From contig JBDRJV010000047.1 in NCBI GenBank assembly GCA_043814605.1, forward strand, positions 5,077-69,076: 64,000 nt of DNA. Reading direction: 5' to 3'. The position numbers and the translations under genes were made by a program. The notes under the pieces were generated by a model that ran no database searches, had not been told where the DNA came from, and was given only the letters and a program-made list of their open reading frames with translations. The DNA is from Candidatus Omnitrophota bacterium (lineage in GTDB: Bacteria > Omnitrophota > Gorgyraeia > B26-G9). Below are positions 1 to 30,092 of the stretch, in pieces; the stretch's first letter is position 1; each line of letters starts with the position of its first letter.

Positions 1-350
1 GTGGTGATTCATCAGAAAAAATGATTTCTTTATTAAATAGCAATAAAAATGTGGGGTTATTTCCTGAAGGTGGTTGTAGTTATGATGGAAAACTAAAAGC
101 TTTCAAAAATGGAGCAGCTCTTTTAGCTATGCGGACAGGGAGGCCCATTGTACCCTGCGCAATTGTAGGAACTTATGAATCATTACCCGTAGATGCAAGC
201 TTTCCCAAATTATTCTTACCAATTATAATAAAAATAGGCAAACCAATTTATCTTTTAAAAGAATTTGATGAGATTATTGAAGATATTGATTTACAGGAAG
301 GAATTTTAAAAGTGAGAAATTCAATAAAGGCTATGCTCAATGCAGGATAA
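1..350 (+). CDS. lysophospholipid/1-acyl-glycerol-3-phosphate acyltransferase (PlsC-like), 5'-truncated by window edge
   Basis: Reading frame is open from position 3. The FPEGG (PlsC-type FPEG) acyltransferase motif sits near the N-terminus of the visible part, so the gene starts upstream of the window. Confidence 0.65.
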   Translation, partial: GDSSEKMISLLNSNKNVGLFPEGGCSYDGKLKAFKNGAALLAMRTGRPIVPCAIVGTYESLPVDASFPKLFLPIIIKIGKPIYLLKEFDEIIEDIDLQEGILKVRNSIKAMLNAG

Positions 351-1908
351 AGAGCTGATTCATATAAACATATCTAAAATTATTCACGCCCAAAAATGGA
401 GAGTTATTCGCCTTTTAACTAAAATCCATGAATTCCCCGGTTATATCCCCTGCGTAAAAGAAGCCAGCTTAATTGAAAAATCCCGCCATAAAATGAAAAC
501 TAAATGGCGGATTGAAATAAATAAAATCCCGATTAATTGGATAGAAAACGATAATCTTGATTTAAGAAATAATACAATTGAATTCCAGGCAGAAACAGGA
601 GATTTAGAAGAATTCAGGGGGGAATGGAAATTTCAGGACCATCATCAAGGGACAAAAGTTTCGGTTAATGTTTATGCCAAAGTAGGTATTCCGGCAATAA
701 GAATTAAGGTTGAATCTCACATCGAAAAAATTCTCACGGAAAATTTTACCGCAATATTAAGGGCTATTGATAACCGGCTTGTTTCTACGCGTTATGCACG
801 GTTTAAAAAAGGGGAAACACAGAGTGTTGCCGGCTTTGGTATTGTGGGCCATCTTTATAATTTTTATCATTTGGAACAGTATATTAAAGTGCTTGATCCG
901 GATGTAAAAATGCCTTCTATGGAATTTTTAAGCCGTATTTTCCGGATTACGCCTTCTTTTAAACTTTTTGATATCCCGGAATTTAAATCTGTAACTGGTC
1001 ATATAGTTAACGGTTGTTTTATTATGTCCACATTTATTCCGGAGATGATGGAAAAAGATGTTTGGGGCGTATTTTCTAAGGTGGTTAAATCCTGCCGTAT
1101 TGCAGAAAAGCAGGGTGTGGGGATTGTGAGTTTAGCCGGGTTTTCCTCGATTGTTGAGGAAAAAATCGGTCAGGCAATCAGCACAGAAGTAGATGTGCCG
1201 GTAACTACAGGTAACACTTATACAGTAGCGATGATTAAGGAGAGTATTTTTAAAGCTGTACAATTTTTAGATTTAGATTTAAGTAAAGCTAATTTAACAA
1301 TTATCGGCGCTGCGGGAAATATTGGCAGCGGATGCGCCAGGATCTTTGCGGATAAAGTAAAAGAACTTATTTTGACTGGCAGAGCCAAAGATTCTCTAAA
1401 AGATTTACAGCAGAGAATTTTTAAAAAATATAAAAAAAGTGTTTCCATTTCTCATAATAGTGAATTATCCGTTCGCGATGCGGATATTGTAATTTGTGCG
1501 GCTAATACGATCACTTCGTTTGTAAAAATGGAATGGTTTAAACCCGGCGCTATTGTTTGTGATGTGGGGTATCCGAGGAATGTTGAACCGGCTGAGCAAA
1601 CCCGGGAAGATGTTTTTATTTTTAACGGAGGTCTTGCCAAATCTCCCACACCCGTTACTTTTCCTTTTGATATGGGATTGCCGGCAAAAGAAGTATTGTA
1701 CGGATGTTTTGCCGAGGCAATAATCTTAGCGCTTGAGAAGCGTTATGAAAACTTTAGCACGCGTGCCGGATACATAATCCCAGAAAAAGTTGAGGAGATC
1801 AGGGTTTTAGGCGAAAAACATGGATTTAGCGTAGCTGATTTTTACTGGTGTAATAAAAAAATTGATGATCAGGCGATTTTGAAAGTTAAACACGTAATTA
1901 TTTCTTAA
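340..1908 (+). CDS. SRPBCC (START/polyketide-cyclase-like) domain fused to long-chain acyl-ACP reductase (AAR) homolog
   Basis: C-terminal ~350 aa align block-by-block with cyanobacterial AAR as I recall it: GIVGHL..LEQ, TGHIVNGCFIxSTFIPEM, TTGNTYT, IIGAAGNIGSGCARIF (Rossmann), LILTGR, VCDVGYPRNV, YGCFAEAIILALE. The N-terminal ~150 aa look like an SRPBCC lipid-binding fold. The start overlaps the upstream gene. Confidence 0.7.
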   Translation: MQDKELIHINISKIIHAQKWRVIRLLTKIHEFPGYIPCVKEASLIEKSRHKMKTKWRIEINKIPINWIENDNLDLRNNTIEFQAETGDLEEFRGEWKFQDHHQGTKVSVNVYAKVGIPAIRIKVESHIEKILTENFTAILRAIDNRLVSTRYARFKKGETQSVAGFGIVGHLYNFYHLEQYIKVLDPDVKMPSMEFLSRIFRITPSFKLFDIPEFKSVTGHIVNGCFIMSTFIPEMMEKDVWGVFSKVVKSCRIAEKQGVGIVSLAGFSSIVEEKIGQAISTEVDVPVTTGNTYTVAMIKESIFKAVQFLDLDLSKANLTIIGAAGNIGSGCARIFADKVKELILTGRAKDSLKDLQQRIFKKYKKSVSISHNSELSVRDADIVICAANTITSFVKMEWFKPGAIVCDVGYPRNVEPAEQTREDVFIFNGGLAKSPTPVTFPFDMGLPAKEVLYGCFAEAIILALEKRYENFSTRAGYIIPEKVEEIRVLGEKHGFSVADFYWCNKKIDDQAILKVKHVIIS

Positions 1909-1941
1909 TAATTAATGTTTCTTTACTTTTAAGGATTGTTT

Positions 1942-2802
1942 ATGGCTAAACAAAAAGTAAGAGTAGCATTTATTACTTATCCTTCATTGTATTCTTTAAT
2001 AATGTTAAATTATTGGTTGAGGAAGCCAAAAACATACCCTGTTGTAGCTATTTTGCTTTCTGATTTTGACTTCAAAGTAAAAGGGAAAGAATTGCCATTT
2101 TTAGCTGTAGTGGCTCGTGTTATTAAACAATCAGGATGGCAATACGCTTTATATGAATTTTTTGTCACATATTTATCAGGGATTCTTATTAATTTGTGGA
2201 ATTTTTTTAGAGTAGTTATTGGTAAAGAAAGAAAAATATTTACCTTCGAACAACTTTCTAAAAAACATAGTATCCCTATTTTTAGAAGTAAAGATTTCGG
2301 AGATGAACAGACTCTGAATTTTTTAAAGAATGTGAATGCTACGTTAATTGTTTCTGGATATAACAACCAGATTATTAAGAAAAATTTAATAAAATTTCCT
2401 GAATTTGGATGTGTTGGTATCCATCCAGCTTTTCTACCAGATTTTCGTGGAGCTGACCCTGTTTTTGCCGCGCTCTATTCTAATGTCAAAGAAACAGGTG
2501 TTACGATACATTATATAGATGGTAAAATTGATAGCGGCCCAATTATTGCTCAAGATAAATCACGTATAAGGATGGAAGATTCTTTATTTTCTCTTAATAT
2601 TAGACTTTGGATGCATGGAGCAAAAATATTATCTTATGTAATAAAACAAATCAGCGAAGGCAAAGTAAACGCAAAAAAACAAAATTATCGATTAACTAAA
2701 TATAAATATGAATCATTTCCTGCAAAACAAAAGATCCGGGATTTTTTAAAAAGAAAAAAATCTTTATTTACCTTTAAAGATATACAAAATATATTAAAAT
2801 AA
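1942..2802 (+). CDS. formyltransferase-domain protein (Fmt/ArnA N-terminal-like) with hydrophobic N-terminal region
   Basis: Formyl_trans_N-like motifs (GIHPAFLPDFRGADP, HYIDGKIDSGPII). AAGGA RBS 7 nt before the ATG at 1942. The ORF track uses an upstream TTG at 1936. Confidence 0.6.
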   Translation: MAKQKVRVAFITYPSLYSLIMLNYWLRKPKTYPVVAILLSDFDFKVKGKELPFLAVVARVIKQSGWQYALYEFFVTYLSGILINLWNFFRVVIGKERKIFTFEQLSKKHSIPIFRSKDFGDEQTLNFLKNVNATLIVSGYNNQIIKKNLIKFPEFGCVGIHPAFLPDFRGADPVFAALYSNVKETGVTIHYIDGKIDSGPIIAQDKSRIRMEDSLFSLNIRLWMHGAKILSYVIKQISEGKVNAKKQNYRLTKYKYESFPAKQKIRDFLKRKKSLFTFKDIQNILK

Positions 2803-2813: not shown

Positions 2814-4100
2814 ATGCAAAATAATGATTTTGATAAAGAGATAGATATAAACGACTTATCCTTAGCAAATTTTATGGGAATAAAAGATAAAGATCTTTTT
2901 AAAAAAGCTAAGATGTTTTTTCAATTTAGTGAGGGATTCAAGAAAAGAGGCTATTATACCTATAGACGTCCTTTAGCTAGTGCCTCAAGTAATCGTTCTC
3001 TCGTGCGCGATCCGATTACAGGTGAAGAAAAAGAAATGATCATGATGGGTTCAAATAATTATTTAGGCCTTGCCAGTCATCCTAAAGTTATTGAAGCAAC
3101 AGAAAAAGCATTAAGAAAATATGGATTAGGTAGTACTGGTGCTTCACTGCTTAATGGGACATTTGATGTGCATCAGGAACTTGAAGCTCGATTAGCAAAA
3201 CTAAAAGGATGCAAGGATGCGGTTTTATTTGGATCTGGGTATGCAGCAAATTTAGGAACATTGACTGCTATTCTGGGTGATGGAGATATTGTTATTAGTG
3301 ATGAGTTAAATCATGCTAGCATTATTGATGGATGCAGATTGAGTGGTGCAAATATCGAAATTTTTAACCATAACAACATGAAACAGTTAGAATCAATTTT
3401 AAAAAATACAAATGTAGGTAATAAGGGTAAACTTATTGTGGTTGATGGAGTTTTTAGTATGGATGGAGATATGGCAAATCTTCCTAAAATTGTTGAGCTA
3501 GCGCAAAAATATAATGCTTATACTATGGTTGATGAAGCCCATGCAACCGGAGTTGTTGGTTCCCAAGGAAAAGGTTCTTTAGAACATTATAATGTAAGAG
3601 GAAAGATAGATTTAATTGTTATTACACTGAGCAAAGCTTTAGGATGTTTTGGCGGAGCTGTATGTTGTAATGATGAAAAAGTTGCTGAATTTTTAAGATT
3701 TTTTTCAAGAAGTAATTTTTTTTCCACAAGTTTTCCTCCGGCGTTAGCAGCAGGGGCTATAGCGGCTATAGATATTTTAGAAAAAGAACCGGAACGGATA
3801 AAAAAATTATGGAGTAATATTAATTACATGTTAGAAAACTTAAAATCAATGGGATATAATACTGGGAATACTCAATCAGCTATTATTCCGGTAATTATTG
3901 GAGATGATCAAAAATTACGAGATATGAGTGTGGATTTTCAAAAAGCAAATATTTATTTAGGAGCAATCCCTTACCCGGCTGTACCAAAAGGAGAGGCTCG
4001 GTTTAGACTTACAGTGATGGCAATCCATACTCAGGAAGACTTAAATCAAACCTTAGATGTTTTTAAAACAGTAGGGAAAAAGTTTGGAGTTATAAAATAA
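2814..4100 (+). CDS. alpha-oxoamine synthase family PLP enzyme (serine palmitoyltransferase / KBL / BioF-like)
   Basis: GSNNYLGL, SGYAANLG, DEAHATG and the PLP-lysine motif TLSKALG. The ~85-aa stretch before the GSNNYLGL motif is longer than in BioF and more SPT-like. RBS GGGGAG upstream. Confidence 0.8.
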   Translation: MQNNDFDKEIDINDLSLANFMGIKDKDLFKKAKMFFQFSEGFKKRGYYTYRRPLASASSNRSLVRDPITGEEKEMIMMGSNNYLGLASHPKVIEATEKALRKYGLGSTGASLLNGTFDVHQELEARLAKLKGCKDAVLFGSGYAANLGTLTAILGDGDIVISDELNHASIIDGCRLSGANIEIFNHNNMKQLESILKNTNVGNKGKLIVVDGVFSMDGDMANLPKIVELAQKYNAYTMVDEAHATGVVGSQGKGSLEHYNVRGKIDLIVITLSKALGCFGGAVCCNDEKVAEFLRFFSRSNFFSTSFPPALAAGAIAAIDILEKEPERIKKLWSNINYMLENLKSMGYNTGNTQSAIIPVIIGDDQKLRDMSVDFQKANIYLGAIPYPAVPKGEARFRLTVMAIHTQEDLNQTLDVFKTVGKKFGVIK

Positions 4101-4103
4101 AAT

Positions 4104-6233
4104 ATGAGTAATAATTTTTTAAGCATTTATGCGCTTCCTTATTTACTTGTAGCAATTTTATTTTTATTTCTTGGGGTTTTTGTTTTTTTGCATAACAAAA
4201 AATCTCTGACAAATCTTTCTTACCTTTTTGTTTGTATAAGTAGTTTTTTATGGCTTTTAGGTAATTACTTAATTATTTCCAGCACAAATGAGAACAGTGC
4301 ATTTTTTTGGGCTAGATTTGCTTATTTTGGAATAACTTTAATCCCTCCGAGTATGTATTTTTTCTCAACAGCTTGGTTGGATTTATATAAAGAAAAAAAG
4401 AAAATAGTAATTTTAAATTATATTTTGGGGTCATGCTTAATACTACTGTTTTTATTTACAGACTTATTTATAACCGGAGTTTATTATTATTTCTTTGGGT
4501 ATTTTTCTAGATTAAGTAAATTCAGTATAATATATTTAATTTGCTTTTTTTTAATTTCCGGAGCATTTTTCTGGAATTTATTTAAAGGTTATAAGAAAGA
4601 AAAAACTGCAATAAAAAAAATTCAAATCAAAAGCGTTTTAATTGCTTTTGTTATTGCGTTTATTGGTGCTGTAGATTTTTGGGTAACTTTTGGCCTAGAA
4701 ATTTATCCAATTAGTTTTATTACGATGACTTTATTTATTGTCATTGTTGCTCATTCGATTATTTATTACAAATTAATGGATATTGAAACTGTACTGCATA
4801 AAACAGCATTATGGTTATTATCTTTCTCTTTTATTGTGATTCCTGTTTTTCTAATATATCGAGGGATCTATTTTTATTTAGAAAAATCTATCATGCTACA
4901 ATTCATCTTTTGGACTGCTTCTTTCGTAATGTTCTCATTTTACCTAAGAGTTATACAGCCGAAAATTGATCATTTTTTTCAAAGGCGCGAGTATAATTTA
5001 CGAGAAACACTAAATAAATTTGTTGAAGAATTGGTTTATCTAAAAGGACTAGATAACCTTATTTCTCAAATAGAAAATACAATCAGAGATACTTTGTATC
5101 CTCAGACGGTTGATATTTTTATTTATAGCGAATTAGATGAAAGGTATATAGCTTTAAATAACAATACTCAAAAAAATAATAGAGAATTAATAGATGAAGA
5201 TAACAATTTTTTAACTTGGTTAAGAAAGAATAATAAAATTGTGTATAAAGAGTTTATAGATATGGATCCACAATTTGTATGGATTAAAGAAGATGCTAAA
5301 AATTATTTTAATTATAACAGTGCTGTTGTAGTAATCCCCTTGATATTAAATAATAATTTATTAGGAATTATTAATTTAGGGAAAAAACAAAATTTAATGC
5401 GCTATAAATCAGCTGATTTTGATTTCTTGAACGTGTTAAGAAATGAATCAGTTATTGCAATATCTAATTCACTTCTTTATGAATATACGGAAGAGCAGGT
5501 TAAACAGCGTTCTGAAGAATTAATTAAAGTACAAAAGCAATTGGTACAGGCAGAAAAATTGGCAACTGTAGGTACACTAGCTGGAGGAGTAGCACATGAA
5601 ATTAATAATCCTCTTGCAGCAATACTCACTAATGTGCAGCTATTATTGGATTCAGATGATATAAAAAATAAAGATGATAAAGAATCTCTGGAATTAATTG
5701 AAGAAGCAACTAAGCGCTGCCGCGAAATTGTAAAAAAACTTATGGTGTATGCACGTAAGCCATTAGCCCGAGAAGAAATAAGCAAAGTAGATTTAAATGA
5801 AGTTATTGGTAATGTATTATCTTTTATTAAATATCAGCTAGGGCAGGAAGATATTAAAATAGTTACTAATCTCCAAAAAAATAATTATTTTGTTACAGGG
5901 AATAAAAATGAACTTGAACATGTAATTACTAATATTGTTTTAAACGCAAAAGATGCGATTAAAAAAATAAAAAAAAGTGGTATTATAGAAATATCTTTAA
6001 CTAAAAGTGAAGAATTTATAAAAATTCAGATAAAAGACGAAGGTGTGGGAATGTCCAGCGAAGTCAGGCCAAAAATATTTGACCCGTTTTTTACCACTAA
6101 AGATGTAGGTAAGGGCTTAGGGCTTGGCCTTTCTATTTGCCAGGCAATTATCGAAAGACATAATGGCAAAATAGAGGTTGAGTCAGAAATAAACAAAGGG
6201 GCTGTTTTTACGGTTCAACTGCCGATTGCATAA
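4104..6233 (+). CDS. sensor histidine kinase, multi-TM N-terminal sensor + HisKA + HATPase_c
   Basis: About 8 hydrophobic helices at the N-terminus. H-box HEINNPLAAIL. G-boxes DEGVGM and GKGLGLGLSIC. Starts 4 nt after the AOS stop. Confidence 0.85.
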   Translation: MSNNFLSIYALPYLLVAILFLFLGVFVFLHNKKSLTNLSYLFVCISSFLWLLGNYLIISSTNENSAFFWARFAYFGITLIPPSMYFFSTAWLDLYKEKKKIVILNYILGSCLILLFLFTDLFITGVYYYFFGYFSRLSKFSIIYLICFFLISGAFFWNLFKGYKKEKTAIKKIQIKSVLIAFVIAFIGAVDFWVTFGLEIYPISFITMTLFIVIVAHSIIYYKLMDIETVLHKTALWLLSFSFIVIPVFLIYRGIYFYLEKSIMLQFIFWTASFVMFSFYLRVIQPKIDHFFQRREYNLRETLNKFVEELVYLKGLDNLISQIENTIRDTLYPQTVDIFIYSELDERYIALNNNTQKNNRELIDEDNNFLTWLRKNNKIVYKEFIDMDPQFVWIKEDAKNYFNYNSAVVVIPLILNNNLLGIINLGKKQNLMRYKSADFDFLNVLRNESVIAISNSLLYEYTEEQVKQRSEELIKVQKQLVQAEKLATVGTLAGGVAHEINNPLAAILTNVQLLLDSDDIKNKDDKESLELIEEATKRCREIVKKLMVYARKPLAREEISKVDLNEVIGNVLSFIKYQLGQEDIKIVTNLQKNNYFVTGNKNELEHVITNIVLNAKDAIKKIKKSGIIEISLTKSEEFIKIQIKDEGVGMSSEVRPKIFDPFFTTKDVGKGLGLGLSICQAIIERHNGKIEVESEINKGAVFTVQLPIA

Positions 6234-6345: not shown

Positions 6346-6726
6346 ATGGCAAAAAATATTTTAATTATTGATGATGAGGCATTAGTAACCAAATCTTTAC
6401 GCAAACTACTTGAGAAAAAGGGTTATAATGTAACTATTGCCCAAAGCGGCAAGGAAGCATTAAAACTTGTGCAGGAGAAAGAATTTAATTTGATAATTTC
6501 TGATGTCCGGATGCCGGAACTTGACGGGGTGGAAACAATAAAAGCAATCCGTGATTATGTTAAAGAACAGGGTAAAAAACCCATAAAGGAAATTCTGATA
6601 ACCGGATATGCAGATGAGCAAAAGTATAAAGACGCCGTTGACTTAAAAGTTGCACATTATATTTACAAACCGTTTGATACAGAGGAGCTGGTTGAGGCAG
6701 TCGAAGACAATATTGGTTCTGCTTAA
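6346..6726 (+). CDS. response regulator, receiver domain only
   Basis: CheY-like fold motifs IIDDE, phospho-Asp context ISDVRMPELDG, and conserved K in YKPF. No output domain. Confidence 0.85.
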   Translation: MAKNILIIDDEALVTKSLRKLLEKKGYNVTIAQSGKEALKLVQEKEFNLIISDVRMPELDGVETIKAIRDYVKEQGKKPIKEILITGYADEQKYKDAVDLKVAHYIYKPFDTEELVEAVEDNIGSA

Positions 6727-6770
6727 GCACAGTAGCTACTCTCTACTTAAAAAAAGAAGGAGCAGAAGAA

Positions 6771-8012
6771 GTGCGCGACAATAGAAACGCCGTAATCACC
6801 GGAGTGGGAGTAATTGCTCCTAATGGGATTGGCAAGGAAAAATATTGGAAAGCGTTGGAAAATGGAGTTAGCGGGATAAGACCAGCTACGCTTTTTGATA
6901 CCACTTATTTTAAAAGTAAACTGGTGGGAGAGTGTACGGATTTTGACCCGGTGGAATTTTTAGGCCCTAAAGGCCACCGTACTCTGGATCGCGCTACCAA
7001 AATGATTGCTTCCGCGGCAAAGCTGGCGCTTGATGACGCCAAGCTTGAAATCACAGAAGAAAATACTGATGATATTGGTGTGGTAACAGCCACAACGTTA
7101 TCGGTTGCTTTTGATATTGCAGAGTTTACCAAAGAAGTTGTACAGGACGGGCCAAATATGGCTAACCCGGCTTTGTTTCCGCCCACAACCATGAATTTCC
7201 CCTCAAGTCACATTGCGATCCGTTATAAGATAAAAGGGTTTAACACAACTATTTCCACAGGATTTTCCGCTGGCCTGGATGCTTTGAAATACGCGATTGA
7301 TTTTATCAAGCTTGGCCGGGCCAAGGTGGTTTTAGTTAGCGGGGTAGAAAGCGCGTCATTTTCTAATTTTGTCGGGTTTTATAAAGCGGGTTTTTTAGCT
7401 GGACGTAAAGGTGAAGAAATATCCTGCCCGTTTGATAAAAGGCATAACGGGATTATTTTAGGTGAAGGCTCAACTGTGATTGTTGTTGAAGATGAAGAGC
7501 ACGCCAAGCAAAGAAAAGCTAATATTTATGCAAAGGTTCTGGCAGTAAAAACATTTTTTGATGCTTTTCGCATTACTGAATACGACCCAAAAGCCCGCGG
7601 CTTAAGGCAAAGCATGCGTAAAGCTTTGGATGAATCCAATACTAGCGAAGCAGAGATTGATTTTATCTGTTCCTGCGCAAATTCCGTTCCCATGCAGGAT
7701 GTTATTGAAACTCAGGCCATAAAAGAAGTGTTTAATATTTACGCTGATAATCTAGCGGTAAGCGGGATAAAATCGATGCTGGGTGAAAGCTGCAGCGCTG
7801 CCGGAGGATTGCAAATAGCCGCGGCAATCGGCGCGATGCAGAACAAATTTATTCCGCCAACTATAAATTATAAAGAGCCGGATCCGGAATGTAATCTTGA
7901 TTATGTAGCCAACAAATCCCGCAAGCAGGATGTGAACAATGTCATGATCAATAATTTCGGGCCGGGAGGAAATAATACAACCGCGATAATCACGAAGTAT
8001 CGTGATTATTAG
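6771..8012 (+). CDS. beta-ketoacyl synthase-like protein lacking the Cys-His-His catalytic triad (chain-length-factor-like)
   Basis: Thiolase/KS fold aligned to the downstream KS. Active-site Cys replaced by Phe (ISTGFSAGL vs NACAAGN), His1 by Cys (CSCANSV vs CAHGTGT), His2 by Glu (SMLGESCS vs SMLGHTMG). GTG start with GAAGGAGC RBS. Confidence 0.8.
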   Translation: MRDNRNAVITGVGVIAPNGIGKEKYWKALENGVSGIRPATLFDTTYFKSKLVGECTDFDPVEFLGPKGHRTLDRATKMIASAAKLALDDAKLEITEENTDDIGVVTATTLSVAFDIAEFTKEVVQDGPNMANPALFPPTTMNFPSSHIAIRYKIKGFNTTISTGFSAGLDALKYAIDFIKLGRAKVVLVSGVESASFSNFVGFYKAGFLAGRKGEEISCPFDKRHNGIILGEGSTVIVVEDEEHAKQRKANIYAKVLAVKTFFDAFRITEYDPKARGLRQSMRKALDESNTSEAEIDFICSCANSVPMQDVIETQAIKEVFNIYADNLAVSGIKSMLGESCSAAGGLQIAAAIGAMQNKFIPPTINYKEPDPECNLDYVANKSRKQDVNNVMINNFGPGGNNTTAIITKYRDY

Positions 8013-8606: not shown

Positions 8607-9833
8607 ATGATAAAGCCGCGAATATTAGCTAATGTGCTTAAAAGAGCAATCAAAAGTTTCCCGGCGGTTGTTGTTACCGGGCCTCGGCAATCCGGAAAAA
8701 CAACTTTATTGAAAACATTGTATTCAAAAACACATCGTTATGTTTCTTTGGAAGATCCGGATGTGAGAATGCGGGCAAAAGAGGACCCGGTGAGTTTTTT
8801 AGCGCAAAATAATGCGCCGGTAATTATTGATGAAATACAATATATTCCGGAGCTGCTTTCATATATAAAAACAAAAATTGATCAAAAAAGAAAACCCGGA
8901 CAATGGTTGTTTACGGGGTCTCAGAATTTTGTTTTAATGCAGGGAGTGAGCCAGTCTCTGGCGGGAAGAGCTGCGGTTGTTTCTCTTTTACCATTTTCTT
9001 ATGCGGAGCGGATAAACCAGGCGGGCAAAGCGCAGGATATTAATAACTGGGTGAAGATGCTGAATGTTGAGCAAATTTGTTCAAAAAAAGAATCTTTGAG
9101 TGAACTTATTTTAAGGGGGAATTATCCGGAGATTGCCAGTAAAAAAACAGTTGACCGGCAATTGTGGTGCGGTTCGTATATCTCTACTTACTTAGAAAGA
9201 GATGTGAGAAATTTGTCGGCCATTGGGGATTTAAGCCAGTTTGAAAGATTCTTAAAACTATGCGCGACAAGAACCGGACAAATTTTAAATCTTTCCGAAA
9301 TGGCAAAAGAAATCGGGGTGAGTGTTCCTACGGCAAAAAGGTGGATTTCAATCCTCGAAACAGGATATCAAATATATTTGCTGTATCCATATTATAAAAA
9401 CATCGGTAAACGTTTAATAAAAAGCCCAAAGCTGTATTTTTGTGATACCGCTTTGGCAGCATATTTGTTGGGAATCAATGATCGTGAAGTGATCTTAAAT
9501 AGCCCAAATTTTGGAAATATTTTTGAAACTATGATTATAAATGATTTTGTTAAACGTTTTTTGCATTTTGGGCAGATGCCTTCAATGTATTACTTGCGCA
9601 GCCGGGATGGATTAGAAATAGATTTGGTGATAGAGGTTAATCAGCAATTGCATTTATTTGAAATAAAGAGCGCGATGAATATTACTCAAAAACATGCAAG
9701 CGCGTTGATAAGACTAAAAGCAGATAAAAAATTAGCAATTAAAACTGCGGCGATAATTTCCCGGTCCAAAGATAATTATTTGCTCAGTAAAGGAGTGGTA
9801 AATTATAATTGGAAGAATATTCTTTCTTTTTGA
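8607..9833 (+). CDS. AAA+ ATPase with C-terminal DUF4143 / PD-(D/E)xK-like domain (COG1373 family)
   Basis: Walker A GPRQSGKTT and Walker B VIIDEIQ. C-terminal D..EID..EIK motif. Paralog of the ORFs at 12498 and 25186. Confidence 0.8.
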   Translation: MIKPRILANVLKRAIKSFPAVVVTGPRQSGKTTLLKTLYSKTHRYVSLEDPDVRMRAKEDPVSFLAQNNAPVIIDEIQYIPELLSYIKTKIDQKRKPGQWLFTGSQNFVLMQGVSQSLAGRAAVVSLLPFSYAERINQAGKAQDINNWVKMLNVEQICSKKESLSELILRGNYPEIASKKTVDRQLWCGSYISTYLERDVRNLSAIGDLSQFERFLKLCATRTGQILNLSEMAKEIGVSVPTAKRWISILETGYQIYLLYPYYKNIGKRLIKSPKLYFCDTALAAYLLGINDREVILNSPNFGNIFETMIINDFVKRFLHFGQMPSMYYLRSRDGLEIDLVIEVNQQLHLFEIKSAMNITQKHASALIRLKADKKLAIKTAAIISRSKDNYLLSKGVVNYNWKNILSF

Positions 9834-9890: not shown

Positions 9891-10256
9891 GTGGAAAAGC
9901 AGAAGATAAAAAATGTAGAAGATTTTCTTGTTTATCAAAAATCAACAAAATTATTTGATGATTTTTTGGAAAAAGATTTACCGGTTTTAAAAGCAGATTT
10001 TGCTGGGAGTACATTAGCCAGAAACCAGTTAAGATGTTTAGATTCTATTTGCGCTAATATGGAAGAAGGCTATGAACGCAAGCATGGGAAAGAGATCAAG
10101 AATTTTTTTAGAATGTCCAAAGGCTCAGCTGGCGAAGCAAGAGGAAGATATAAACGGTTGAAGAGAGTATTACCGGAAAAAGTTATAGAAATTAGAGTAG
10201 CAGCTTTAAATGAGATTAGAGCCATGCTTGAATCTTTGACTAAGAAATGGGAATAG
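9891..10256 (+). CDS. four-helix-bundle protein (23S rRNA intervening-sequence protein family, TIGR02436-like)
   Basis: About 120 aa with the EG..R...G S.GEA.G pattern (NMEEGYERKHG...SKGSAGEARG) typical of this family. GTG start. Confidence 0.55.
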   Translation: MEKQKIKNVEDFLVYQKSTKLFDDFLEKDLPVLKADFAGSTLARNQLRCLDSICANMEEGYERKHGKEIKNFFRMSKGSAGEARGRYKRLKRVLPEKVIEIRVAALNEIRAMLESLTKKWE

Positions 10257-10420: not shown

Positions 10421-10602
10421 TATTTACTTAAAAAAATAAGTTTAATTATTTTGTAATGAATAAAATATGAATGGTGAGTTTTGCAAGTGAACTGTATATA
10501 TAAGCGTATTTTAGAGGAATTGAGTATTTTTCTCTCTACTTGCTACTCGCTTGTGCCCGTAAGGGTACTACTCTCTACTTAAAAAAAGAAGGAGCTAAAA
10601 AC

Positions 10603-11820
10603 GTGCGCAACAACAGAAGAGTCGTAGTTACAGGAATTGGGATTGTTTCGGCATTAGGCATTGGCCGGGATAAGTTTTGGGATAATATTAAAAAAGGTAA
10701 GTCAGGGATATCTAAGATTACCTCAATAGATACATCTGCTTATAAATGCCATTATGGCGGAGAAGTAAAAGATTTTAATCCTGAAGATTTTATCCCGAAA
10801 AGAAGAATAAAGTTTTTAGGCAAAACATCACAGTTGGCAATTGCCGCGGCTTATTTAGCTTTACAAGATTCCGGTATTCCTTTAAAGCGAATCCCCAAAG
10901 AATCAATGGGTGTGATCATGGGAACAACTATTGGGGAGAAAGCTATAGAAGAGTTAGCTGCACAATGGGCCAAAGGCGGATTAAAAGAAATAGACAGAAA
11001 AAAACTTTTCCAGGCTGCTGCCAATAATATTCCGGCTAATGTAGCTATACAGTTTAAAGCCATGGGATTAAATTGTTTAATCCCCAATGCCTGTGCTGCG
11101 GGTAATTATGCAATTGGTTATGGATATGATTTAATAAGGAATAAAGATTTAAATTTTGCTTTAGTCGGTGGAAGTGAATCGTTTTCACCTTTAGCCTATG
11201 CCGGGTTTCAAAGGCTTTATGCTATGTCTCCGGATAAATGCAGTCCTTTTGATAAAAATAGAAAAGGCATGATGCTGGGAGAAGGTTCTGGAATATTATT
11301 TTTAGAATCTTTAGAATCAGCTTTAAAACGCAAAGTAAAGATTTACGCGGAAATTTTAGGTTACGGCTTATCCTGCGATGCTTATCATGCTACAGCGCCT
11401 GACCCCAAAGGCATTGCTCGAGTTATGCAAAAGGCGTTAGATCAAGCGAATATTAGTTATAAAGAGGTTGATTATGTTTGCGCGCACGGTACAGGTACTC
11501 CGGCTAATGATAAAGCCGAAAGCGCGGCAGTCAAGGAAGTTTTCAAAGAGAGGCATAAAGAAGTATTAGTTAGTTCAATAAAATCAATGCTCGGGCATAC
11601 AATGGGTGCGTCTTCAGCGATTGCAGGAGCAGCTTGTTGCTTAGGGATAAAAGAAGGAATTGTGCCGCCGACCATAAACTTTGAAACTCCGGATCCGGAA
11701 TGTGATATAGACTGCGTGCCGAATAAAGCGCGTAAAAAAGATCTGAATGTTGTTTTAAATAACGGCTTTGCTTTTGGCGGAAATAATTGCTGCGTGGCGT
11801 TTGGGAAATATAGCGGATAG
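10603..11820 (+). CDS. beta-ketoacyl-ACP synthase (FabF/KAS II-like), catalytic triad intact
   Basis: NACAAGNYAIG (Cys), CAHGTGT (His), SMLGHTMG (His). GTG start at 10603 with the same upstream leader (tactctctacttaaaaaaagaaggagc) as the 6771 gene. The ORF track extends to an upstream TTG at 10540, which I do not favour. Confidence 0.85.
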   Translation: MRNNRRVVVTGIGIVSALGIGRDKFWDNIKKGKSGISKITSIDTSAYKCHYGGEVKDFNPEDFIPKRRIKFLGKTSQLAIAAAYLALQDSGIPLKRIPKESMGVIMGTTIGEKAIEELAAQWAKGGLKEIDRKKLFQAAANNIPANVAIQFKAMGLNCLIPNACAAGNYAIGYGYDLIRNKDLNFALVGGSESFSPLAYAGFQRLYAMSPDKCSPFDKNRKGMMLGEGSGILFLESLESALKRKVKIYAEILGYGLSCDAYHATAPDPKGIARVMQKALDQANISYKEVDYVCAHGTGTPANDKAESAAVKEVFKERHKEVLVSSIKSMLGHTMGASSAIAGAACCLGIKEGIVPPTINFETPDPECDIDCVPNKARKKDLNVVLNNGFAFGGNNCCVAFGKYSG

Positions 11821-12497: not shown

Positions 12498-13745
12498 ATG
12501 TATATACATAGAGATCTCGAAAAAAAAATTATTAAATACTTAGATAGTCCGGAAATTTTGGCGATCATTGGCCCTCGGCAGAGCGGGAAGACTACGCTAA
12601 TTAAAAATGTTCTAAAAACTCTTAAAAACGCTGTATACATAGATTTTGAAGACAGAGAAGTTCTGGAATTATTTAATAGTGATATAAAGTCTTTTTATAA
12701 GTTATATGTTAAAGATTCTAAATATTTATTTGTTGACGAATTTCAATACGCGAAAGAAGGCGGCAAAAAGTTAAAGTATTTATATGATACTTTTAAACTA
12801 AAAATTATTATTTCCGGCTCTTCCAGCCTTGATCTTACAAAGCAGGCGATAAAATATTTAGTGGGGAGAGTTTTTGTTTTTTACCTTTATCCTTTTAGTT
12901 TCAAGGAATATCTGGATTTTCGCGATAAGTCATGTTATGAGAATATTTATTTAGATATCCATGAAACTGTCAAAGAATATTTTTTATACAAGAAAAAATC
13001 TATTCCGCTTATTTCTCCAGAAATGATAAAAAAAATTAATAAATATTATCATGAATATGCGATTTTTGGCGGATACCCCCGTGTAGTTCTGGCTAAAGGT
13101 ATTGAAGAAAAAATAACCGTTCTGAAAAATATTTACAACACTTACTTTTTAAGAGAAATAAGGGATATCCTACAGCTGAGTACAGAAGTGGAATTACAAA
13201 AGCTGATCAAATGCCTAGCGCTTCAGACAGGCAGTATAGTCTCATATAAAGAATTAAGCCAAACAACAAGTTTAAATTATAATAACCTGTTAAAACATTT
13301 AAATATCCTTGAGAATACTTTTGTGATAAAAAAACTTCTGCCGTTTTTTCGTAATAAAAGAACAGAAATCGCCAAAGCTCCGAAAATTTATTTTGTGGAT
13401 AATGGTTTGAGAAATATGTCGGTAGGTAATTTTCAGGACATGGGAGAACGAGTTGATAGAGGCAGTATTAATGAGAATTTTATTGCCGGAGAATTATTAA
13501 AGCAGGAATTTGCCATAAATTACTGGAGAACAAAATCTAACGCGGAAGTTGATTTTATCTTGGAAAAACAGGGCAAACACAGCGCGATTGAAGTAAAATC
13601 CAGATTGTCTTCGGATAAAATCGGTAGAGCATTAATCGCTTTTAAAGAAAAATATCCTGATTTTAGAATAACTATTGTTTCTGAAAATTATTATAGTTTT
13701 AATAAAAAAGAGCAGGTTTTTTTTCTGCCGTTATTTTTTGTTTAA
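12498..13745 (+). CDS. AAA+ ATPase with C-terminal DUF4143 / PD-(D/E)xK-like domain (COG1373 family)
   Basis: GPRQSGKTT, FVDEFQ, C-terminal EVDFIL...AIEVKS. Confidence 0.8.
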   Translation: MYIHRDLEKKIIKYLDSPEILAIIGPRQSGKTTLIKNVLKTLKNAVYIDFEDREVLELFNSDIKSFYKLYVKDSKYLFVDEFQYAKEGGKKLKYLYDTFKLKIIISGSSSLDLTKQAIKYLVGRVFVFYLYPFSFKEYLDFRDKSCYENIYLDIHETVKEYFLYKKKSIPLISPEMIKKINKYYHEYAIFGGYPRVVLAKGIEEKITVLKNIYNTYFLREIRDILQLSTEVELQKLIKCLALQTGSIVSYKELSQTTSLNYNNLLKHLNILENTFVIKKLLPFFRNKRTEIAKAPKIYFVDNGLRNMSVGNFQDMGERVDRGSINENFIAGELLKQEFAINYWRTKSNAEVDFILEKQGKHSAIEVKSRLSSDKIGRALIAFKEKYPDFRITIVSENYYSFNKKEQVFFLPLFFV

Positions 13746-13950: not shown

Positions 13951-15033
13951 ATGAACAAAAAACGGACAATATTTTTAACCGGTGCGACGGGATTAATCGC
14001 TTCCTATTTATTGAAATTACTTTTAGAAAACGGCAATAAAGTTTATGCTCTAGCTAGAGGTAAAAAAGATCAGTCTGCTAAAGATCGAGTAATTGACATG
14101 TTGAAATTCTGGCAGGCGGATATCTCGCCGGATTTATTTAAAAATTTAACTGTTGTTGAAGGAGATATTACTTATTCAGATTTAGTTAAGCTGGATGCAA
14201 AAGATATTTTAAATAAGCTTTATAATGAAATTGAAATAATTTTTCACAGCGCAGCATTAGCAGAATTAAAAGTTTTGTATGAAAAGATAAAAAAGATAAA
14301 TGTTGACGGCACCAGAAATGTTCTGGATTTTGCCCTAAAATGCAAAAAATTAAAAAAAGTAAATCATATCAGTACAGCATATGTTGTAGGAGATAAAAAC
14401 GGCATAGAATTTAGCGAAGATATGCTTGACGTCGGCCAGGGATTTCATAATACATACGAGCAAACTAAGTTTGAAGCAGAAGTTTTATGTCATGAATATA
14501 TAGATAACAAAGGATTAAATATCTCTATTTTTCGTCCAAGCATGGTAATGGGTGATTCAATAGAAGGAAAAACCAATAATTTTAGATTATTTTATGAGCC
14601 GCTGCATTTCTTTTCTAAAGAAATTTACGAAGCTTTCCCGGTAAATCCTAATTATACGCAAAACTTGATTAATAATGATGTTGTGGGAAAAGCGATTTTT
14701 GCATTAGGAGAAATAGAAAATATTGCAGTATATCATATTGTTTCTCCAAATCATATTACAATGCAGTTTTTTATGCAGACTGCAGCAGAACATTTTGGAT
14801 ACAAATTGCCAAAGCTTATCCCTATTGAAAAGTTTAATTTTAATCAATGGACAGCATCACAAAAACTTTTAGCAGAACCATTTATCCCATATTTTAATTT
14901 TAATACAAAATTTTTGTCTAAAAAAACAGGTGAAATTTTTAATAAAGTTAAACTTAAACTTCCAGAAATAAAAAAAGAGAGTTTAATTAAAATATTTAAT
15001 TTTTGCAATAAGGCTGATTTTATAAAAAATTAA
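13951..15033 (+). CDS. NAD(P)-binding thioester/fatty-acyl reductase-like protein (NAD_binding_4 / extended SDR)
   Basis: LTGATGLIASYL Rossmann motif and YEQTK (YxxxK). Architecture resembles terminal reductase domains and fatty acyl-CoA reductases. Could alternatively be a sugar epimerase. Confidence 0.6.
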   Translation: MNKKRTIFLTGATGLIASYLLKLLLENGNKVYALARGKKDQSAKDRVIDMLKFWQADISPDLFKNLTVVEGDITYSDLVKLDAKDILNKLYNEIEIIFHSAALAELKVLYEKIKKINVDGTRNVLDFALKCKKLKKVNHISTAYVVGDKNGIEFSEDMLDVGQGFHNTYEQTKFEAEVLCHEYIDNKGLNISIFRPSMVMGDSIEGKTNNFRLFYEPLHFFSKEIYEAFPVNPNYTQNLINNDVVGKAIFALGEIENIAVYHIVSPNHITMQFFMQTAAEHFGYKLPKLIPIEKFNFNQWTASQKLLAEPFIPYFNFNTKFLSKKTGEIFNKVKLKLPEIKKESLIKIFNFCNKADFIKN

Positions 15034-15047
15034 CAAAAGGCGAGAAA

Positions 15048-15647
15048 ATGGATATTTTAAAAATTATAAAGGAAAGAAAGAGTATTAGAAAATATCAGGA
15101 TAAGCCTATTCCAAAAGAAATAATTAATAAAATAATTGAAGCAGGTATTTGGGGGCCGTCTGTCCCAAGTTTTTTAAAAATCCAACCGTTTAAATTTGTT
15201 GTTGTAACTAAAAAAGAAATAATCGCAAAAATTTCTTCGCTATTAGAAAAGAAATCGTTAAAAGTTTCTGTAGCAGCTAAAATTTTACTGAAAGGAGCAA
15301 GCAATATTATTAATGCTGTTCCGGTGGTAGTTTTTGTTTACAAAACAAAAGATCTAGAGAATTCGCAGCATAAGTTTAAAGAGGTATATTTAAGTCTTAA
15401 AAAAGTGGTTAAAACTGCTCAAATATCTGCAATTTCAGCAGCAATCCAAAATATGATTTTAACTGCTGAAAAATTAGGGGTAGGGTCTTGCTGGTTAGAT
15501 ATCCCCTTGTTTTGCGAACAAAACATTAACAAGGTGCTAAATAACAATAATAAATTAATTGCTGTATTAACTCTTGGTTATCCTGCAGAAAAAGGGAAAC
15601 GATCACCAAGGAAACCATATGAGGAAGCAGTGGAATTTATAACATGA
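15048..15647 (+). CDS. nitroreductase-family flavoprotein
   Basis: N-terminal RKSIRKY motif typical of the nitroreductase family, about 200 aa. Confidence 0.7.
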   Translation: MDILKIIKERKSIRKYQDKPIPKEIINKIIEAGIWGPSVPSFLKIQPFKFVVVTKKEIIAKISSLLEKKSLKVSVAAKILLKGASNIINAVPVVVFVYKTKDLENSQHKFKEVYLSLKKVVKTAQISAISAAIQNMILTAEKLGVGSCWLDIPLFCEQNINKVLNNNNKLIAVLTLGYPAEKGKRSPRKPYEEAVEFIT

Positions 15648-19329: not shown

Positions 19330-19367
19330 AACTTGACAAAAAGTGATTTGAATAATAATATTGTAAT

Positions 19368-20213
19368 ATGGCAAGACCATTAAGAATAGAATATGACGGA
19401 GCAGTATATCACGTAACATCGCGAGGTAATGCGAAAGAACCTATCTTTAAGAATGCTGAAGATAGGTTTAATTTTTTTGAAGTACTAGCAGAAGCAAAGA
19501 AAAAGCATAATATTATATGTCATGCGTATTGTTTAATGGATAATCATTATCATTTAGTTGTGGAAACTCCTGAGGGAAATTTGAGTAGGGCAATGAGGCA
19601 TATAAATGGAGTTTATACGCAAAGTTTTAACCGCAAGCATAAAAGAGTAGGTCATGTGTTTCAAGGTAGATATAAAGCGATGTTGGTAGATAGGGATGAA
19701 TATCTATTGGAAGTAATTAGATATGTGGTTTTAAATCCCGTACGAGCTGGATTAGTTAAAAGTGCGGAAAAATGGCAATGGAGTAGTTATTGTGGAACTG
19801 TGGGGATGAGCAAAAAAGAGAGATTTCTGGATACAGATTGGGTGTTGGAATATTTTGGAGGCACAAAAAATATTGCTCAAAAAAAATACCGAGAATATGT
19901 AGATGAGGGAATTGAAAAAGAAATAGTAAAGAAAAAGATTAGTCAGCAGAGTATTCTTGGCAGTGAAAGTTTTAAGCAAAAAATCTCTAAGTATGTGCAA
20001 GGGAAAAAAGAAATAAAAGAAATTTCAAGGTGCCAACGTTATGTGGGACGTCCTCAATTAGAAGATATTTTTAAGGGAGCGCAAAAAGTCAAAGCAGAAA
20101 GAAATGCTTTAATTAGAAAAGCAATAACAGATTACGGGTATCAGCAAAAAGAGATAGCGCAGTGGTTGGGGATGCATTATACCAGCGTAAGTAAAATACT
20201 AAGCAGGGAATAA
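19368..20213 (+). CDS. IS200-like Y1 (HUH) transposase, REP-associated (RAYT)-like, with C-terminal DnaA_C-like HTH
   Basis: HUH motif HYHLVVET. Catalytic-Tyr region GRYKAM. The C-terminal ~80 aa resemble the DnaA C-terminal DNA-binding domain. Paralog at 43640. Confidence 0.7.
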   Translation: MARPLRIEYDGAVYHVTSRGNAKEPIFKNAEDRFNFFEVLAEAKKKHNIICHAYCLMDNHYHLVVETPEGNLSRAMRHINGVYTQSFNRKHKRVGHVFQGRYKAMLVDRDEYLLEVIRYVVLNPVRAGLVKSAEKWQWSSYCGTVGMSKKERFLDTDWVLEYFGGTKNIAQKKYREYVDEGIEKEIVKKKISQQSILGSESFKQKISKYVQGKKEIKEISRCQRYVGRPQLEDIFKGAQKVKAERNALIRKAITDYGYQQKEIAQWLGMHYTSVSKILSRE

Positions 20214-20274
20214 AAAGCTAAAATTCACCGCAAATGCGGGACAGGCAAGACCTGAATCCATGCCTTAGGAAATG

Positions 20275-20376
20275 GAACTCCCACGGGCTAAACATGGTTC
20301 CTGGGGTGGAATACTCAAGCGGCATCCTTTTATCCGCGCCATAAATGGGCGCGGTTTTAGGCCGCGGATGTATAAA
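20275..20376 (-). repeat. ~110-bp GC-rich structured element, copy B (inverted; 60 nt downstream of the transposase stop)
   Basis: Reverse complement matches copy A at ~93% identity. Confidence 0.7.
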
Positions 20377-20421
20377 ATGCTAAAATTCAAGACCTGACCC
20401 CATTACGCTTTATTCGCAGAA

Positions 20422-21438: not shown

Positions 21439-21452
21439 GATTGGAATAAATA

Positions 21453-26334: not shown

Positions 26335-26422
26335 AAACAAAAGAGAAACAAATAATTCAAATAATAATATTGATTTAACGCGGGCAATTCATGAATTGCC
26401 CCTTATATGCGGAGGAATGTGC

Positions 26423-30069: not shown

Positions 30070-30092
30070 ATATCTCCATTTTATGTTTAAAT

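Follow-up and report, generated by a model that had tools for sequence, protein, structure and literature searches.

A gene at positions 340 to 1,908 of a 64,000-nucleotide stretch of Candidatus Omnitrophota DNA (contig JBDRJV010000047.1; the whole stretch is called the window) encodes a protein in which an SRPBCC domain is fused to a reductase domain from the AAR superfamily (AAR, acyl-ACP reductase; ACP, acyl carrier protein). The most conserved and most informative partners of the fusion are an overlapping acyltransferase gene upstream, and a 7TM sensor kinase gene with a response regulator (RR) downstream. The sensor region of this kinase diverges to paralog-like levels along with a variable tailoring gene that lies between fusion and kinase, while the kinase core stays orthologous. 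We regard it as an even call that the reductase stands at the head of a variable pathway of lipid tailoring, with the neighbouring kinase as monitor of the pathway product. The enzymatic core taken alone, a putative aldehyde-forming thioester reductase deduced from sequence and model, is somewhat more likely than this composite reading.

AAR has so far been studied almost only as one half of the cyanobacterial alkane pathway. Here the same catalytic scaffold is found in a phylum that is uncultured and for the most part host-associated, and a putative lipid-binding domain built into the protein takes the place of an aldehyde-deformylating oxygenase (ADO) partner. If the proposed chemistry is true, the family would offer self-contained aldehyde-forming enzymes for production of fatty alcohols or amines, and a first handle on the specialised lipids of Omnitrophota. 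The directional kinase link and the tracking sensor lead to the testable hypothesis that HisKA_7TM sensors may read lipid-derived molecules, and could point to lipid-based signalling coupled to cyclic di-GMP (c-di-GMP) in Omnitrophota. Gene order was compared over the window and 83 related loci (84 in all, with L numbers below) by tblastn of the neighbour proteins, extraction of open reading frames (ORFs) and Pfam/NCBIfam scans.

Domains, fold and motifs of the fusion protein

The ORF lies exactly at the predicted coordinates, and its domain profiles and fold agree with the original prediction, made from the sequence alone, of an N-terminal SRPBCC domain followed by a C-terminal AAR-like domain. 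Since full-length homologs reach E values down to about 1e-220 in the database search, the ORF is not a chance frame. In Pfam, residues 24-129 match Polyketide_cyc (SRPBCC, PF03364) with E 4e-10 and 40.4 bits against a gathering cutoff of 23.4 bits, and residues 313-429 form a Shikimate_DH-type Rossmann region. In NCBIfam, residues 166-497 match the acyl-ACP reductase profile TIGR04058 (E 2.4e-44, 152.1 bits), and residues 197-518 match the N-terminal reductase part of PigE, NF053554 (E 6e-46, 157 bits). Sequence matches in the PDB follow the same division, with the SRPBCC protein TTHA0849 (2d4r, E 7e-10) for the N-terminal domain, and AAR (6jzq, E 5e-31) and PigE (4ppm, E 2e-30) for the C-terminal part.

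An AlphaFold2 model built from 119 homologs (pLDDT 87.3, pTM 0.79) was superposed on known structures with Foldseek. The C-terminal part of the model fits AAR 6jzy with a TM-score of 0.85 normalised to AAR (root-mean-square deviation 2.9 Å, 26% identity), and the N-terminal part fits TTHA0849 with a TM-score of 0.93; ARO/CYC polyketide cyclases also superpose on the latter. The long C-terminal helix of the SRPBCC domain (residues 118-156, assigned by DSSP on the model) is the link to the reductase domain.

Residue conservation was counted over 198 aligned family members. Cys456, the counterpart of catalytic Cys294 in AAR and of Cys296 in PigE, is kept in 193 of them. G323, G326 and G329 of the dinucleotide-binding motif GAAGNIGS are invariant, as are T289, G291 and N292 of the TTGN motif, and T290 is almost so. 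The window protein also has D408 and, conserved across the family, GYP(K/R)N. After strand beta-2 the sequence Gly-Arg is found, as in AAR, with R348 present in 190 of the 198 members, at the position where NAD-specific terminal amidation domains (TAD) of nonribosomal peptide synthetases (NRPS) have an Asp. This replacement would point, as weak evidence, to NADPH.

The N-terminal domain shares the helix-grip fold and the hydrophobic pocket of SRPBCC proteins of RatA/COQ10/ARO-CYC type (TTHA0849, TcmN, ZhuI, MSMEG_5634/Rv0910), as well as their association with ACP-bound acyl or polyketide chains and with ketosynthase (KS) and CLF genes; it differs in being covalently joined to a reductase. Residues W56, W67, F82, F92 and W96 of this domain are invariant in the family alignment, and the RatA-like protein MSMEG_5634/Rv0910 binds long-chain acyl-AcpM (PMC9014085). 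On the basis of these aromatic residues and this precedent we propose that the domain offers a pocket for a hydrophobic ligand.

Placement within the AAR-like superfamily

Judged from its profile scores, the fusion is a separate branch of the AAR-like superfamily and no AAR ortholog, and the reductase domain of PigE is at least equally close. The score of 152.1 bits is about 300 bits short of the TIGR04058 equivalog cutoff of 449.7 bits, with 26-27% identity to 6jzy and 6jzq, and the PigE equivalog NF053554 gives 157 bits against a cutoff of 850 bits, over its N-terminal 355 profile positions only. The original identification as an AAR thus holds for the motifs and the catalytic Cys and fails for orthology. 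Glutamyl-tRNA reductase, set beforehand as the alternative that would speak against AAR, is a far weaker match (hemA, 30.7 bits against 152-157 bits for AAR and PigE in NCBIfam) and was rejected, and so were the FolD, OCD and SDR (short-chain dehydrogenase/reductase) families with at most 30 bits each.

With cyanobacterial AAR (TIGR04058; 6jzq and 6jzy) the fusion has in common the two-domain fold, the position of the catalytic Cys, TTGN, the GxGxxG and GYPKN motifs and the Arg after beta-2, and likely also a ping-pong mechanism in which an acyl-S-Cys forms before hydride is transferred. It differs in the additional SRPBCC domain, in having no ADO partner in view, in its Omnitrophota host, and in standing beside genes for an acyltransferase, for tailoring enzymes and for a sensor kinase. 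More broadly, the fold, the Cys in the cleft between the N- and C-terminal domains, the TTG(N) motif and the Rossmann-type C-terminal domain place the fusion in the superfamily that also holds the N-terminal part of PigE and TAD.

PigE's N-terminal domain converts a thioester to an aldehyde, which is aminated by the C-terminal transaminase of the same protein, and its Cys296 occupies the position of AAR Cys294 (PMC8341465). By profile the fusion is as similar to PigE as to AAR, and it has the same Cys; a reductase-then-transaminase order is seen in L071, L073 and L079. The partner of the reductase is a C-terminal aminotransferase in PigE and an N-terminal SRPBCC domain in the fusion; the fusion ORF has no aminotransferase domain and the window no PigE-type aminotransferase, its pyridoxal phosphate (PLP) enzyme being an alpha-oxoamine synthase (AOS), and there is no pyrrole or prodiginine cluster. 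In L086 (9123..10901) an acetolactate-synthase-like thiamine diphosphate (ThDP) enzyme stands right after a stand-alone AAR-like gene, which recalls the pair PigD-PigE of the MAP branch of prodigiosin.

TAD resemble AAR in structure, with an invariant cleft Cys and a TTG motif, and are NAD-specific via Asp2102 (bioRxiv 10.1101/2024.10.28.620694). The fusion shares with them (carmabin CarI, 9e4s and 9e50) the superfamily fold, the Cys and the motif; TAD differ by the Asp and by being embedded in NRPS modules, and by sequence the similarity is marginal (E 1.5e-5).

An exhaustive search of 50%-identity representatives gave 2697 relatives at E <= 1e-3, of which 252 at E <= 1e-30. The best 150 all score above 140 bits, compared with about 111 bits for cyanobacterial AAR with the same query in the PDB search, and most of them are stand-alone proteins of about 350-380 residues with 30-40% identity. 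AAR-like enzymes are therefore numerous outside cyanobacteria, and both the catalytic scaffold and its occurrence there are existing knowledge.

ADO is about 230 residues long. As the original prediction had it, there is no ADO in the window: the family gave no Pfam match among window ORFs of at least 120 residues, shorter ORFs lying outside the scan, and there is none among the annotated neighbours in L001, L003, L084-L086, L088 and L089. That the fusion is a genuine alkane-pathway AAR with its ADO elsewhere in the genome, or a TAD-like non-reductive off-loading enzyme, is in our judgement highly improbable. AAR is the top structural match of the model and the TAD domains come next, and the view covers 64 kb of the source genome and up to 20 kb around each homolog. 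Against an alkane pathway stand this lack of ADO and the deficit relative to the AAR cutoff, and against TAD the marginal sequence similarity and the absence of an NRPS or peptidyl carrier protein context.

Distribution and architecture variants

At least 486 homologs of the fusion were found in the first database search. Among the best 120, almost all are full-length proteins of about 522 residues with 54-61% identity, and all entries with an organism name belong to Candidatus Omnitrophota/Omnitrophica. A scan of one genome per GTDB species gave 94 relatives, essentially all from Candidatus Omnitrophota, and the 80 retained are nearly all full-length fusions in metagenome-assembled genomes (MAGs) and single-amplified genomes of this phylum. 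A few uncultured-MAG records in the scan are labelled "uncultured Planctomycetales", "PVC group" or "Uhrbacteria", which we read as classification noise. At 50% clustering the fusion architecture occurs in at least 16 clusters and reaches down to 27-31% identity.

With these numbers of homologs, and about 94 GTDB species with a relative, the fusion is not the rarity that the original prediction took it for; moreover, PigE and TAD were already known from outside cyanobacteria. The proteins are held in public databases under generic automated names only, "SRPBCC family protein" at NCBI and "predicted amino acid dehydrogenase/RatA" or, for some, "fatty aldehyde-generating acyl-ACP reductase" at JGI. 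The prediction is partly supported, right on architecture and missing ADO and wrong on rarity and AAR orthology, and it passes over the conserved partner genes. In the literature searched we found no description of an SRPBCC-acyl-ACP reductase fusion, and the fusion is absent from a 2026 review on START proteins of bacteria. That literature likewise gives no account of the family's confinement, so far, to Omnitrophota, of the variable tailoring slot, or of a HisKA_7TM two-component system that is linked directionally and matched in its sensor.

The two domains occur either fused or as adjacent genes, and are therefore functional partners. In the split form, seen in L086 and L087, the SRPBCC domain has a gene of its own for 160 residues (E 9e-15 to the N-domain), and an AAR-like gene for 371 residues (37% identity to the C-domain) comes directly after it. 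Distant relatives carry further domains: P0131 and P0139 have the architecture PilZ-SRPBCC-AAR, and P0133 (L084 1083..3251), which is followed by a GMC oxidoreductase gene, is HTH_17-PilZ-SRPBCC-AAR. In many Omnitrophota loci the HTH_17 domain that is fused in P0133 is encoded by a small separate gene upstream of the acyltransferase. The fused PilZ domains have the RxxxR (read from the sequences) and (D/N)xSxxG motifs.

A different arrangement is found in P0196 (L089 7001..9082), P0200 and P0268, proteins of 693-706 residues in which the reductase domain is joined to an N-terminal region of about 330 residues without Pfam match. The AAR-like gene of L089 is followed by a class-IV aminotransferase gene and sits in a housekeeping neighbourhood with no 7TM kinase.

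The coupled acyltransferase and the variable slot

An acyltransferase gene ends within 200 bp of the fusion start in 54 of the 62 loci of the clade with at least 48% identity, and is adjacent in none of the 18 loci of the divergent clade. In the window its frame is open from nucleotide 3, includes an FPEGG motif, and is 52.6% identical to the acyltransferase of L001, for which acyl-[ACP]--phospholipid O-acyltransferase (Aas) domains are the best NCBIfam match. Its stop codon overlaps the ATG of the fusion by 11 nt (ATGCAGGATAA), and this overlap indicates translational coupling.

Between fusion and kinase, one or two genes fill a variable slot in 22 of the 49 loci with a kinase downstream. The slot is occupied by GMC oxidoreductases (9 loci, e.g. 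L001), by B12-binding radical SAM proteins (4 loci, e.g. L004), by SDR, NAD_binding_4 or thioester-reductase-like proteins (4 loci), by a second, stand-alone AAR-like gene with a PEMT/ICMT-type methyltransferase gene (2 loci), by a class-III aminotransferase gene followed by a formyltransferase-like gene (L073, L079) or by a GNAT-like gene (L071), by a single AMP-binding-ACP-acyltransferase protein (L026 only), or by AOS plus a formyltransferase-like protein (the window and L040). GMC oxidoreductases and the SDR/NAD_binding_4 proteins belong to families that handle alcohols or aldehydes. The best NCBIfam match of the L073 aminotransferase is the aminotransferase half of PigE (467 bits, E 1e-139); this locus thus has the two activities of PigE as neighbouring genes, and is the strongest indirect evidence for release of an aldehyde by the family reductase.

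The formyltransferase-like and AOS genes of the window had been predicted correctly, and the suggestion that they consume an aldehyde or acyl intermediate is plausible. AOS was nevertheless rejected as a conserved partner, being found in only 2 of the 84 loci. It matches TIGR01825 with 423 bits and stays under every equivalog cutoff. Orthologs of the formyltransferase-like gene occupy the slot in L037, L040, L073 and L079 (L043 is a tblastn match only), in L040, L073 and L079 beside amine-forming PLP enzymes. These formyltransferase-like proteins keep the catalytic His and Asp, lack the C-terminal domain of Fmt and have a hydrophobic insertion, which is N-terminal in the window copy; a genuine Fmt with the catalytic Asn is also encoded in the window (53454..54413).

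Further away, a FadL/TodX gene is directly upstream in L086 and in L048 (Pfam-confirmed), similar signal-peptide proteins are encoded at this place in L053, L069, L079 and L083, and one lies about 5 kb upstream in L088. Sets of KS, CLF, ACP, dehydratase (DH) and ketoreductase (KR) genes occur within 10 kb in about one third of the loci with long flanks. In the window, no ACP, KR or DH gene was found by tblastn at E <= 0.01.

These neighbours bear on the direction of the reaction. The enzyme might run in reverse, as an acylating aldehyde dehydrogenase that salvages exogenous hydrophobic aldehydes, taken up through FadL and kept by the SRPBCC domain, to an enzyme- or ACP-bound thioester, from which the Aas-type acyltransferase would make phospholipid. 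The FadL/TodX genes directly upstream in several loci, the salvage type of the acyltransferase and the missing ACP, KR and DH set in the window would fit such a route. PigE-type transaminases, SDRs and GMC oxidoreductases after the enzyme fit production of aldehyde better, though, and characterised AAR and PigE both run reductively. R348, too, suggests NADPH, which is typical of biosynthetic reduction, and we regard the salvage route as very unlikely.

The linked kinase and co-variation of its sensor with the slot

A HisKA_7TM kinase gene starts within 3 kb downstream of the fusion, on the same strand, in 49 of the 51 loci with enough flank, compared with 1 of 61 upstream, and a receiver protein follows the kinase. 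The link persists where the fusions share only 31-38% identity (L085, L086, L088), and the kinase orthologs downstream of the fusion in L001, L003, L085, L086 and L088 are annotated as HisKA_7TM. The N-terminal 235 residues of the window kinase align with its HisKA_7TM paralogs there, the family having four paralogs in the window. For HisKA_7TM the literature searched holds census papers only, with no ligand described.

Averaged over pairs of 56 loci, the kinase core is 61.5% identical, the fusion 57% and the 7TM region 30%. Because paralogs of this kinase in the window have only 33-34% identity to it in the core, the fusion-adjacent cores are orthologous. The identity of each region was regressed on fusion identity, core identity and "same slot type", with slot labels permuted among loci. 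A shared slot type raised the identity of the 7TM region by 0.10 and that of the linker region by 0.06 (permutation p < 0.001 for both). Its effect was 0.00 on the kinase core and -0.005 (p = 0.42) on the 3' end of the fusion, albeit this end is equally near the slot as the 5' end of the kinase gene, and there was none on the SRPBCC domain.

Two possible artefacts behind this pattern were rejected. Symmetric linkage is incompatible with the lack of effect at the fusion 3' end, and non-linear divergence with the finding that the result is unchanged with quadratic covariates and holds in every matched 5% bin. Within these bins of fusion or core identity, sensor identity is 0.32-0.42 for same-slot pairs and 0.25-0.29 for different-slot pairs at equal core identity. 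The AOS-type pair (window and L040) has 52% sensor identity with enzymes that are 52.5% identical, and loci without a slot gene compared with GMC-type loci have 22% sensor identity at 60% enzyme identity. The simplest reading of these sequence comparisons is that the sensor would read something dependent on the tailoring chemistry.

A possible route from the kinase to lipid synthesis is seen in L088, where a receiver domain is fused to a complete ketosynthase (RR-KS; 14622..16328, 568 residues); after it come an SRPBCC gene that stands alone and a further 7TM kinase gene. The RR-KS protein aligns to the window receiver (37% identity) and to the window KS genes (34-36%), and its architecture suggests a direct action of the receiver on chain synthesis, by phospho-control of a condensing enzyme.

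Another output is found in L085, the locus of a 31%-identity relative: there the receiver that follows a 7TM-GAF kinase carries a fused nucleotidyl (guanylate/adenylate) cyclase domain (6416..7468), which gives the same cassette a second-messenger output of another kind. The locus comes from an assembly of millions of contigs (GCA_024449895.1).

Proposed pathway and its alternatives

From the observed architecture, fold, motifs, distribution, synteny and sensor/slot co-variation, we infer the enzyme's substrate, product and cofactor, the part played by the SRPBCC domain and the cue for the kinase as follows. An acyl chain on an ACP-type thioester would move to Cys456, and the acyl-S-enzyme would be reduced by hydride, probably from NADPH, to an aldehyde. 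The SRPBCC pocket may either capture the acyl chain of acyl-ACP, for which MSMEG_5634/Rv0910 gives a precedent, or shelter the poorly soluble and reactive aldehyde until the next enzyme; as an aldehyde holder it would replace the acceptor role that ADO has for cyanobacterial AAR. The aldehyde would then pass to the slot enzyme, which sets the end product, and no alkane would be formed. In the window, the formyltransferase-like protein and AOS suggest an N-formylated or N-acylated amino-lipid. The coupled Aas-type acyltransferase would draw on the same acyl-thioester pool as the reductase. The adjacent 7TM kinase would monitor the end product, or the membrane state that it creates, and signal via the receiver, possibly straight to the ketosynthase pair, and via the RR-HD-GYP proteins to c-di-GMP.

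Several observations weigh against this pathway. Enzymatic activity is, for every member of the family, a prediction from sequence and model; the scores lie far under both the AAR and the PigE equivalog cutoffs, Cys456 is missing from 5 of the 198 family members, and TAD, the nearest structural relative after AAR, may not be a reductase (bioRxiv 10.1101/2024.10.28.620694). Any slot gene is lacking in 27 of the 51 loci. The acyl donor is not defined locally, since the window is without ACP, KR and DH and, of its two KSs, one is catalytically inactive. Its formyltransferase-like protein has Gly in place of the catalytic Asn (VGIHP vs INIHP/LNVHA), which is kept in the orthologs, and this paralog may be inactive or use another donor. 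Because of this replacement, and because AOS uses an acyl-thioester and not an aldehyde, the route in the window is less clear than in the transaminase loci. Finally, one-sided recombination of cassettes, with the slot gene and the 5' part of the kinase gene moving as a unit, is a possible source of the same co-variation; repeated retention of such units, even if they arose by recombination, would suggest functional matching.

A specific physiological version of the favoured pathway, with the same enzymology, is that its product is a diffusible, cell-cell lipid signal. By this analogy the fusion and slot enzyme would be an autoinducer-type synthase, a FadL-type channel the exit across the outer membrane and the 7TM kinase the receptor; candidate signals would be a fatty aldehyde, alcohol, amine or amino-ketone, and slot swaps would create signal "dialects". 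CqsA-CqsS, LqsA-LqsS and RpfF-RpfC-RpfG are pairs of lipid-signal synthases and membrane sensor kinases. The Omnitrophota loci resemble them, by analogy from the genes alone, in a putative synthase gene that would use acyl-thioesters beside a polytopic kinase gene (in 49 of 51 loci), an AOS-family enzyme in the window, RR-HD-GYP outputs as in RpfG, and a sensor, not kinase core, that diversifies with the predicted chemistry. The window AOS does match the alpha-hydroxyketone autoinducer synthase family NF005526 (212 bits), the FadL/TodX genes would provide the exit, and the PilZ domain fused in some relatives could give c-di-GMP feedback on synthesis. However, the fusion is not homologous to RpfF, its kinase sensor is of the HisKA_7TM family, and the AOS is like CqsA at family level only, the NF005526 cutoff being 428 bits and BioF/Kbl fitting far better. 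Export of the product would be a supposition by analogy, many loci have no slot gene, and the overlapping Aas-type acyltransferase, like the KS/ACP genes nearby, has more the look of structural-lipid metabolism. A kinase that senses a membrane-resident product made by its own cell would lead one to expect the co-variation just as much. We therefore put this version forward as tentative only.

Held with the same reserve is the broader idea that the cassette of acyltransferase, SRPBCC-reductase, slot enzyme, 7TM kinase and receiver is an unrecognised lipid-derived signalling family in Omnitrophota. The slot enzyme would then make from the fatty aldehyde a lineage-specific alcohol, acid, amine, N-formyl amine or amino-ketone for detection by a matched 7TM sensor, and outputs would be c-di-GMP turnover through RR-HD-GYP proteins and chain synthesis through RR-KS, with PilZ feedback in some lineages.

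Alternatively, the locus may serve remodelling of envelope lipids, with acyl-ACP diverted to fatty alcohols, ether or vinyl-ether lipids or amino-lipids, and a two-component system that answers membrane stress. The coupled Aas-type acyltransferase of the main clade argues for this alternative, and so do the AMP-binding-ACP-acyltransferase protein of the L026 slot, the KS/CLF/ACP/DH/KR sets, the resemblance of the slot B12-radical SAM proteins to those of lipid clusters, the MGDG-synthase-like and lipid A acyltransferase genes further along the same strand of the window, and the phospho-control of chain synthesis implied by RR-KS. Its logic parallels that of the myxobacterial multidomain protein ElbD (FAAL-ACP-reductase-AGPAT); the ElbD reductase, however, is of a different family (NAD_binding_4) from the AAR-type reductase of the fusion, for which the acyltransferase is a separate gene, the L026 protein being the only one of comparable composition. 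In the divergent clade the acyltransferase is missing, yet the kinase link persists, no glycerol-ether-forming enzyme was identified, and remodelling by itself leaves unexplained why the sensor tracks the tailoring gene. We consider this alternative rather unlikely.

Other genes of the window

The features of the fusion and the operon to which it belongs are listed in Table 1. The signalling tail of the operon is interrupted by an IS200-like gene and a DUF4143 ATPase gene. In place of the ACP-DH segment found between the KS genes of L001, the window has a DUF4143 ATPase gene (8607..9833) together with a 23S-rRNA-IVP gene (9891..10256).

Table 1. Fusion gene and associated features in the window (HK, histidine kinase).
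Feature	Position	Strand	Remarks
PlsC/Aas-type (LPLAT) acyltransferase, 3' part	3..350	+	cut by left edge of window; Pfam Acyltransferase E 1e-10
SRPBCC-AAR-like fusion protein	340..1908	+	522 aa, ATG start
SRPBCC/START helix-grip domain	358..807	+	aa ~7-156; PF03364, PDB 2d4r, DSSP of model
AAR-superfamily acyl-thioester reductase domain (predicted)	835..1893	+	aa 166-518; TIGR04058, NF053554, 6jzq, 6jzy
Dinucleotide-binding motif GAAGNIGS	1306..1329	+	aa 323-330; aligns with GATGDIGS of AAR
Cys456 codon	1705..1707	+	HMMER alignment, translation
Formyltransferase-like protein	1936..2802	+	Formyl_trans_N domain only; variable slot
AOS (BioF/Kbl/SPT-like PLP acyltransferase)	2814..4100	+	Aminotran_1_2 E 9e-63; variable slot
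HisKA_7TM sensor histidine kinase	4104..6233	+	kinase core matches many HK families (NCBIfam)
Stand-alone response-regulator receiver	6346..6726	+	126 aa; 45 nt upstream of KS gene
Ketosynthase-family protein, CLF-like	6771..8012	+	active-site Cys missing
FabF-like ketosynthase	10540..11820	+	Cys/His/His active site intact; 70% identity to second KS of L001
NAD_binding_4/thioester-reductase-domain protein (FAR-like)	13951..15033	+	relatives fill slot in other loci
Nitroreductase-family protein	15048..15647	+	pathway membership uncertain
Amine-oxidase/desaturase-like flavoprotein	15644..17110	+	pathway membership uncertain; similar flavoprotein after KS genes in L001
Operon signalling tail	17110..27472	+	same gene order in L003
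Two further HisKA_7TM kinases of signalling tail	17110..19329, 21453..23684	+	
Two RR-HD-GYP proteins of signalling tail	23885..24922, 26396..27472	+	HD and GYP motifs intact

Three AAA_14/DUF4143 ATPase genes are found in the operon (8607..9833, 12498..13745 and 25186..26334), and one in L088 (5871..7034); they give the impression of a selfish or defence-type element that inserted repeatedly. Two IS200/Y1-transposase-like genes are located at 19368..20213 and 43640..44641, and the second carries a fused DnaA C-terminal HTH domain. A partial second copy of the amine-oxidase-like gene (20422..21438, 39% identity to the copy at 15644..17110) directly follows the first of them, which suggests rearrangement.

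Synteny with L003 is broken by a block at 28637..36417, between a PNP_UDP_1 gene and an MGDG-synthase-like gene. On the minus strand of this block are genes for a HipA-like kinase, a further HisKA_7TM kinase, a receiver and a regulator of HTH-cupin type; after them come genes for a Peptidase_S74 protein (endosialidase-chaperone, tail-fibre-like) and for an fn3/DUF4082/Big_7 protein.

A giant SpvB/TcdB/FG-GAP/RHS-repeat toxin-like protein of 2143 residues is encoded at 36590..43021. A similar giant protein of 2520 residues is encoded upstream of the fusion in L001 (1..5314), and L086 has a gene for 8849 residues, so that such giant genes, for surface proteins or toxins, seem to be recurrent neighbours of fusion loci. 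Two tandem GalT/HIT-superfamily paralogs (galactose-1-phosphate uridylyltransferase-like, DUF4921/DUF4931) are located upstream of the GAPDH gene, at 54552..56657.

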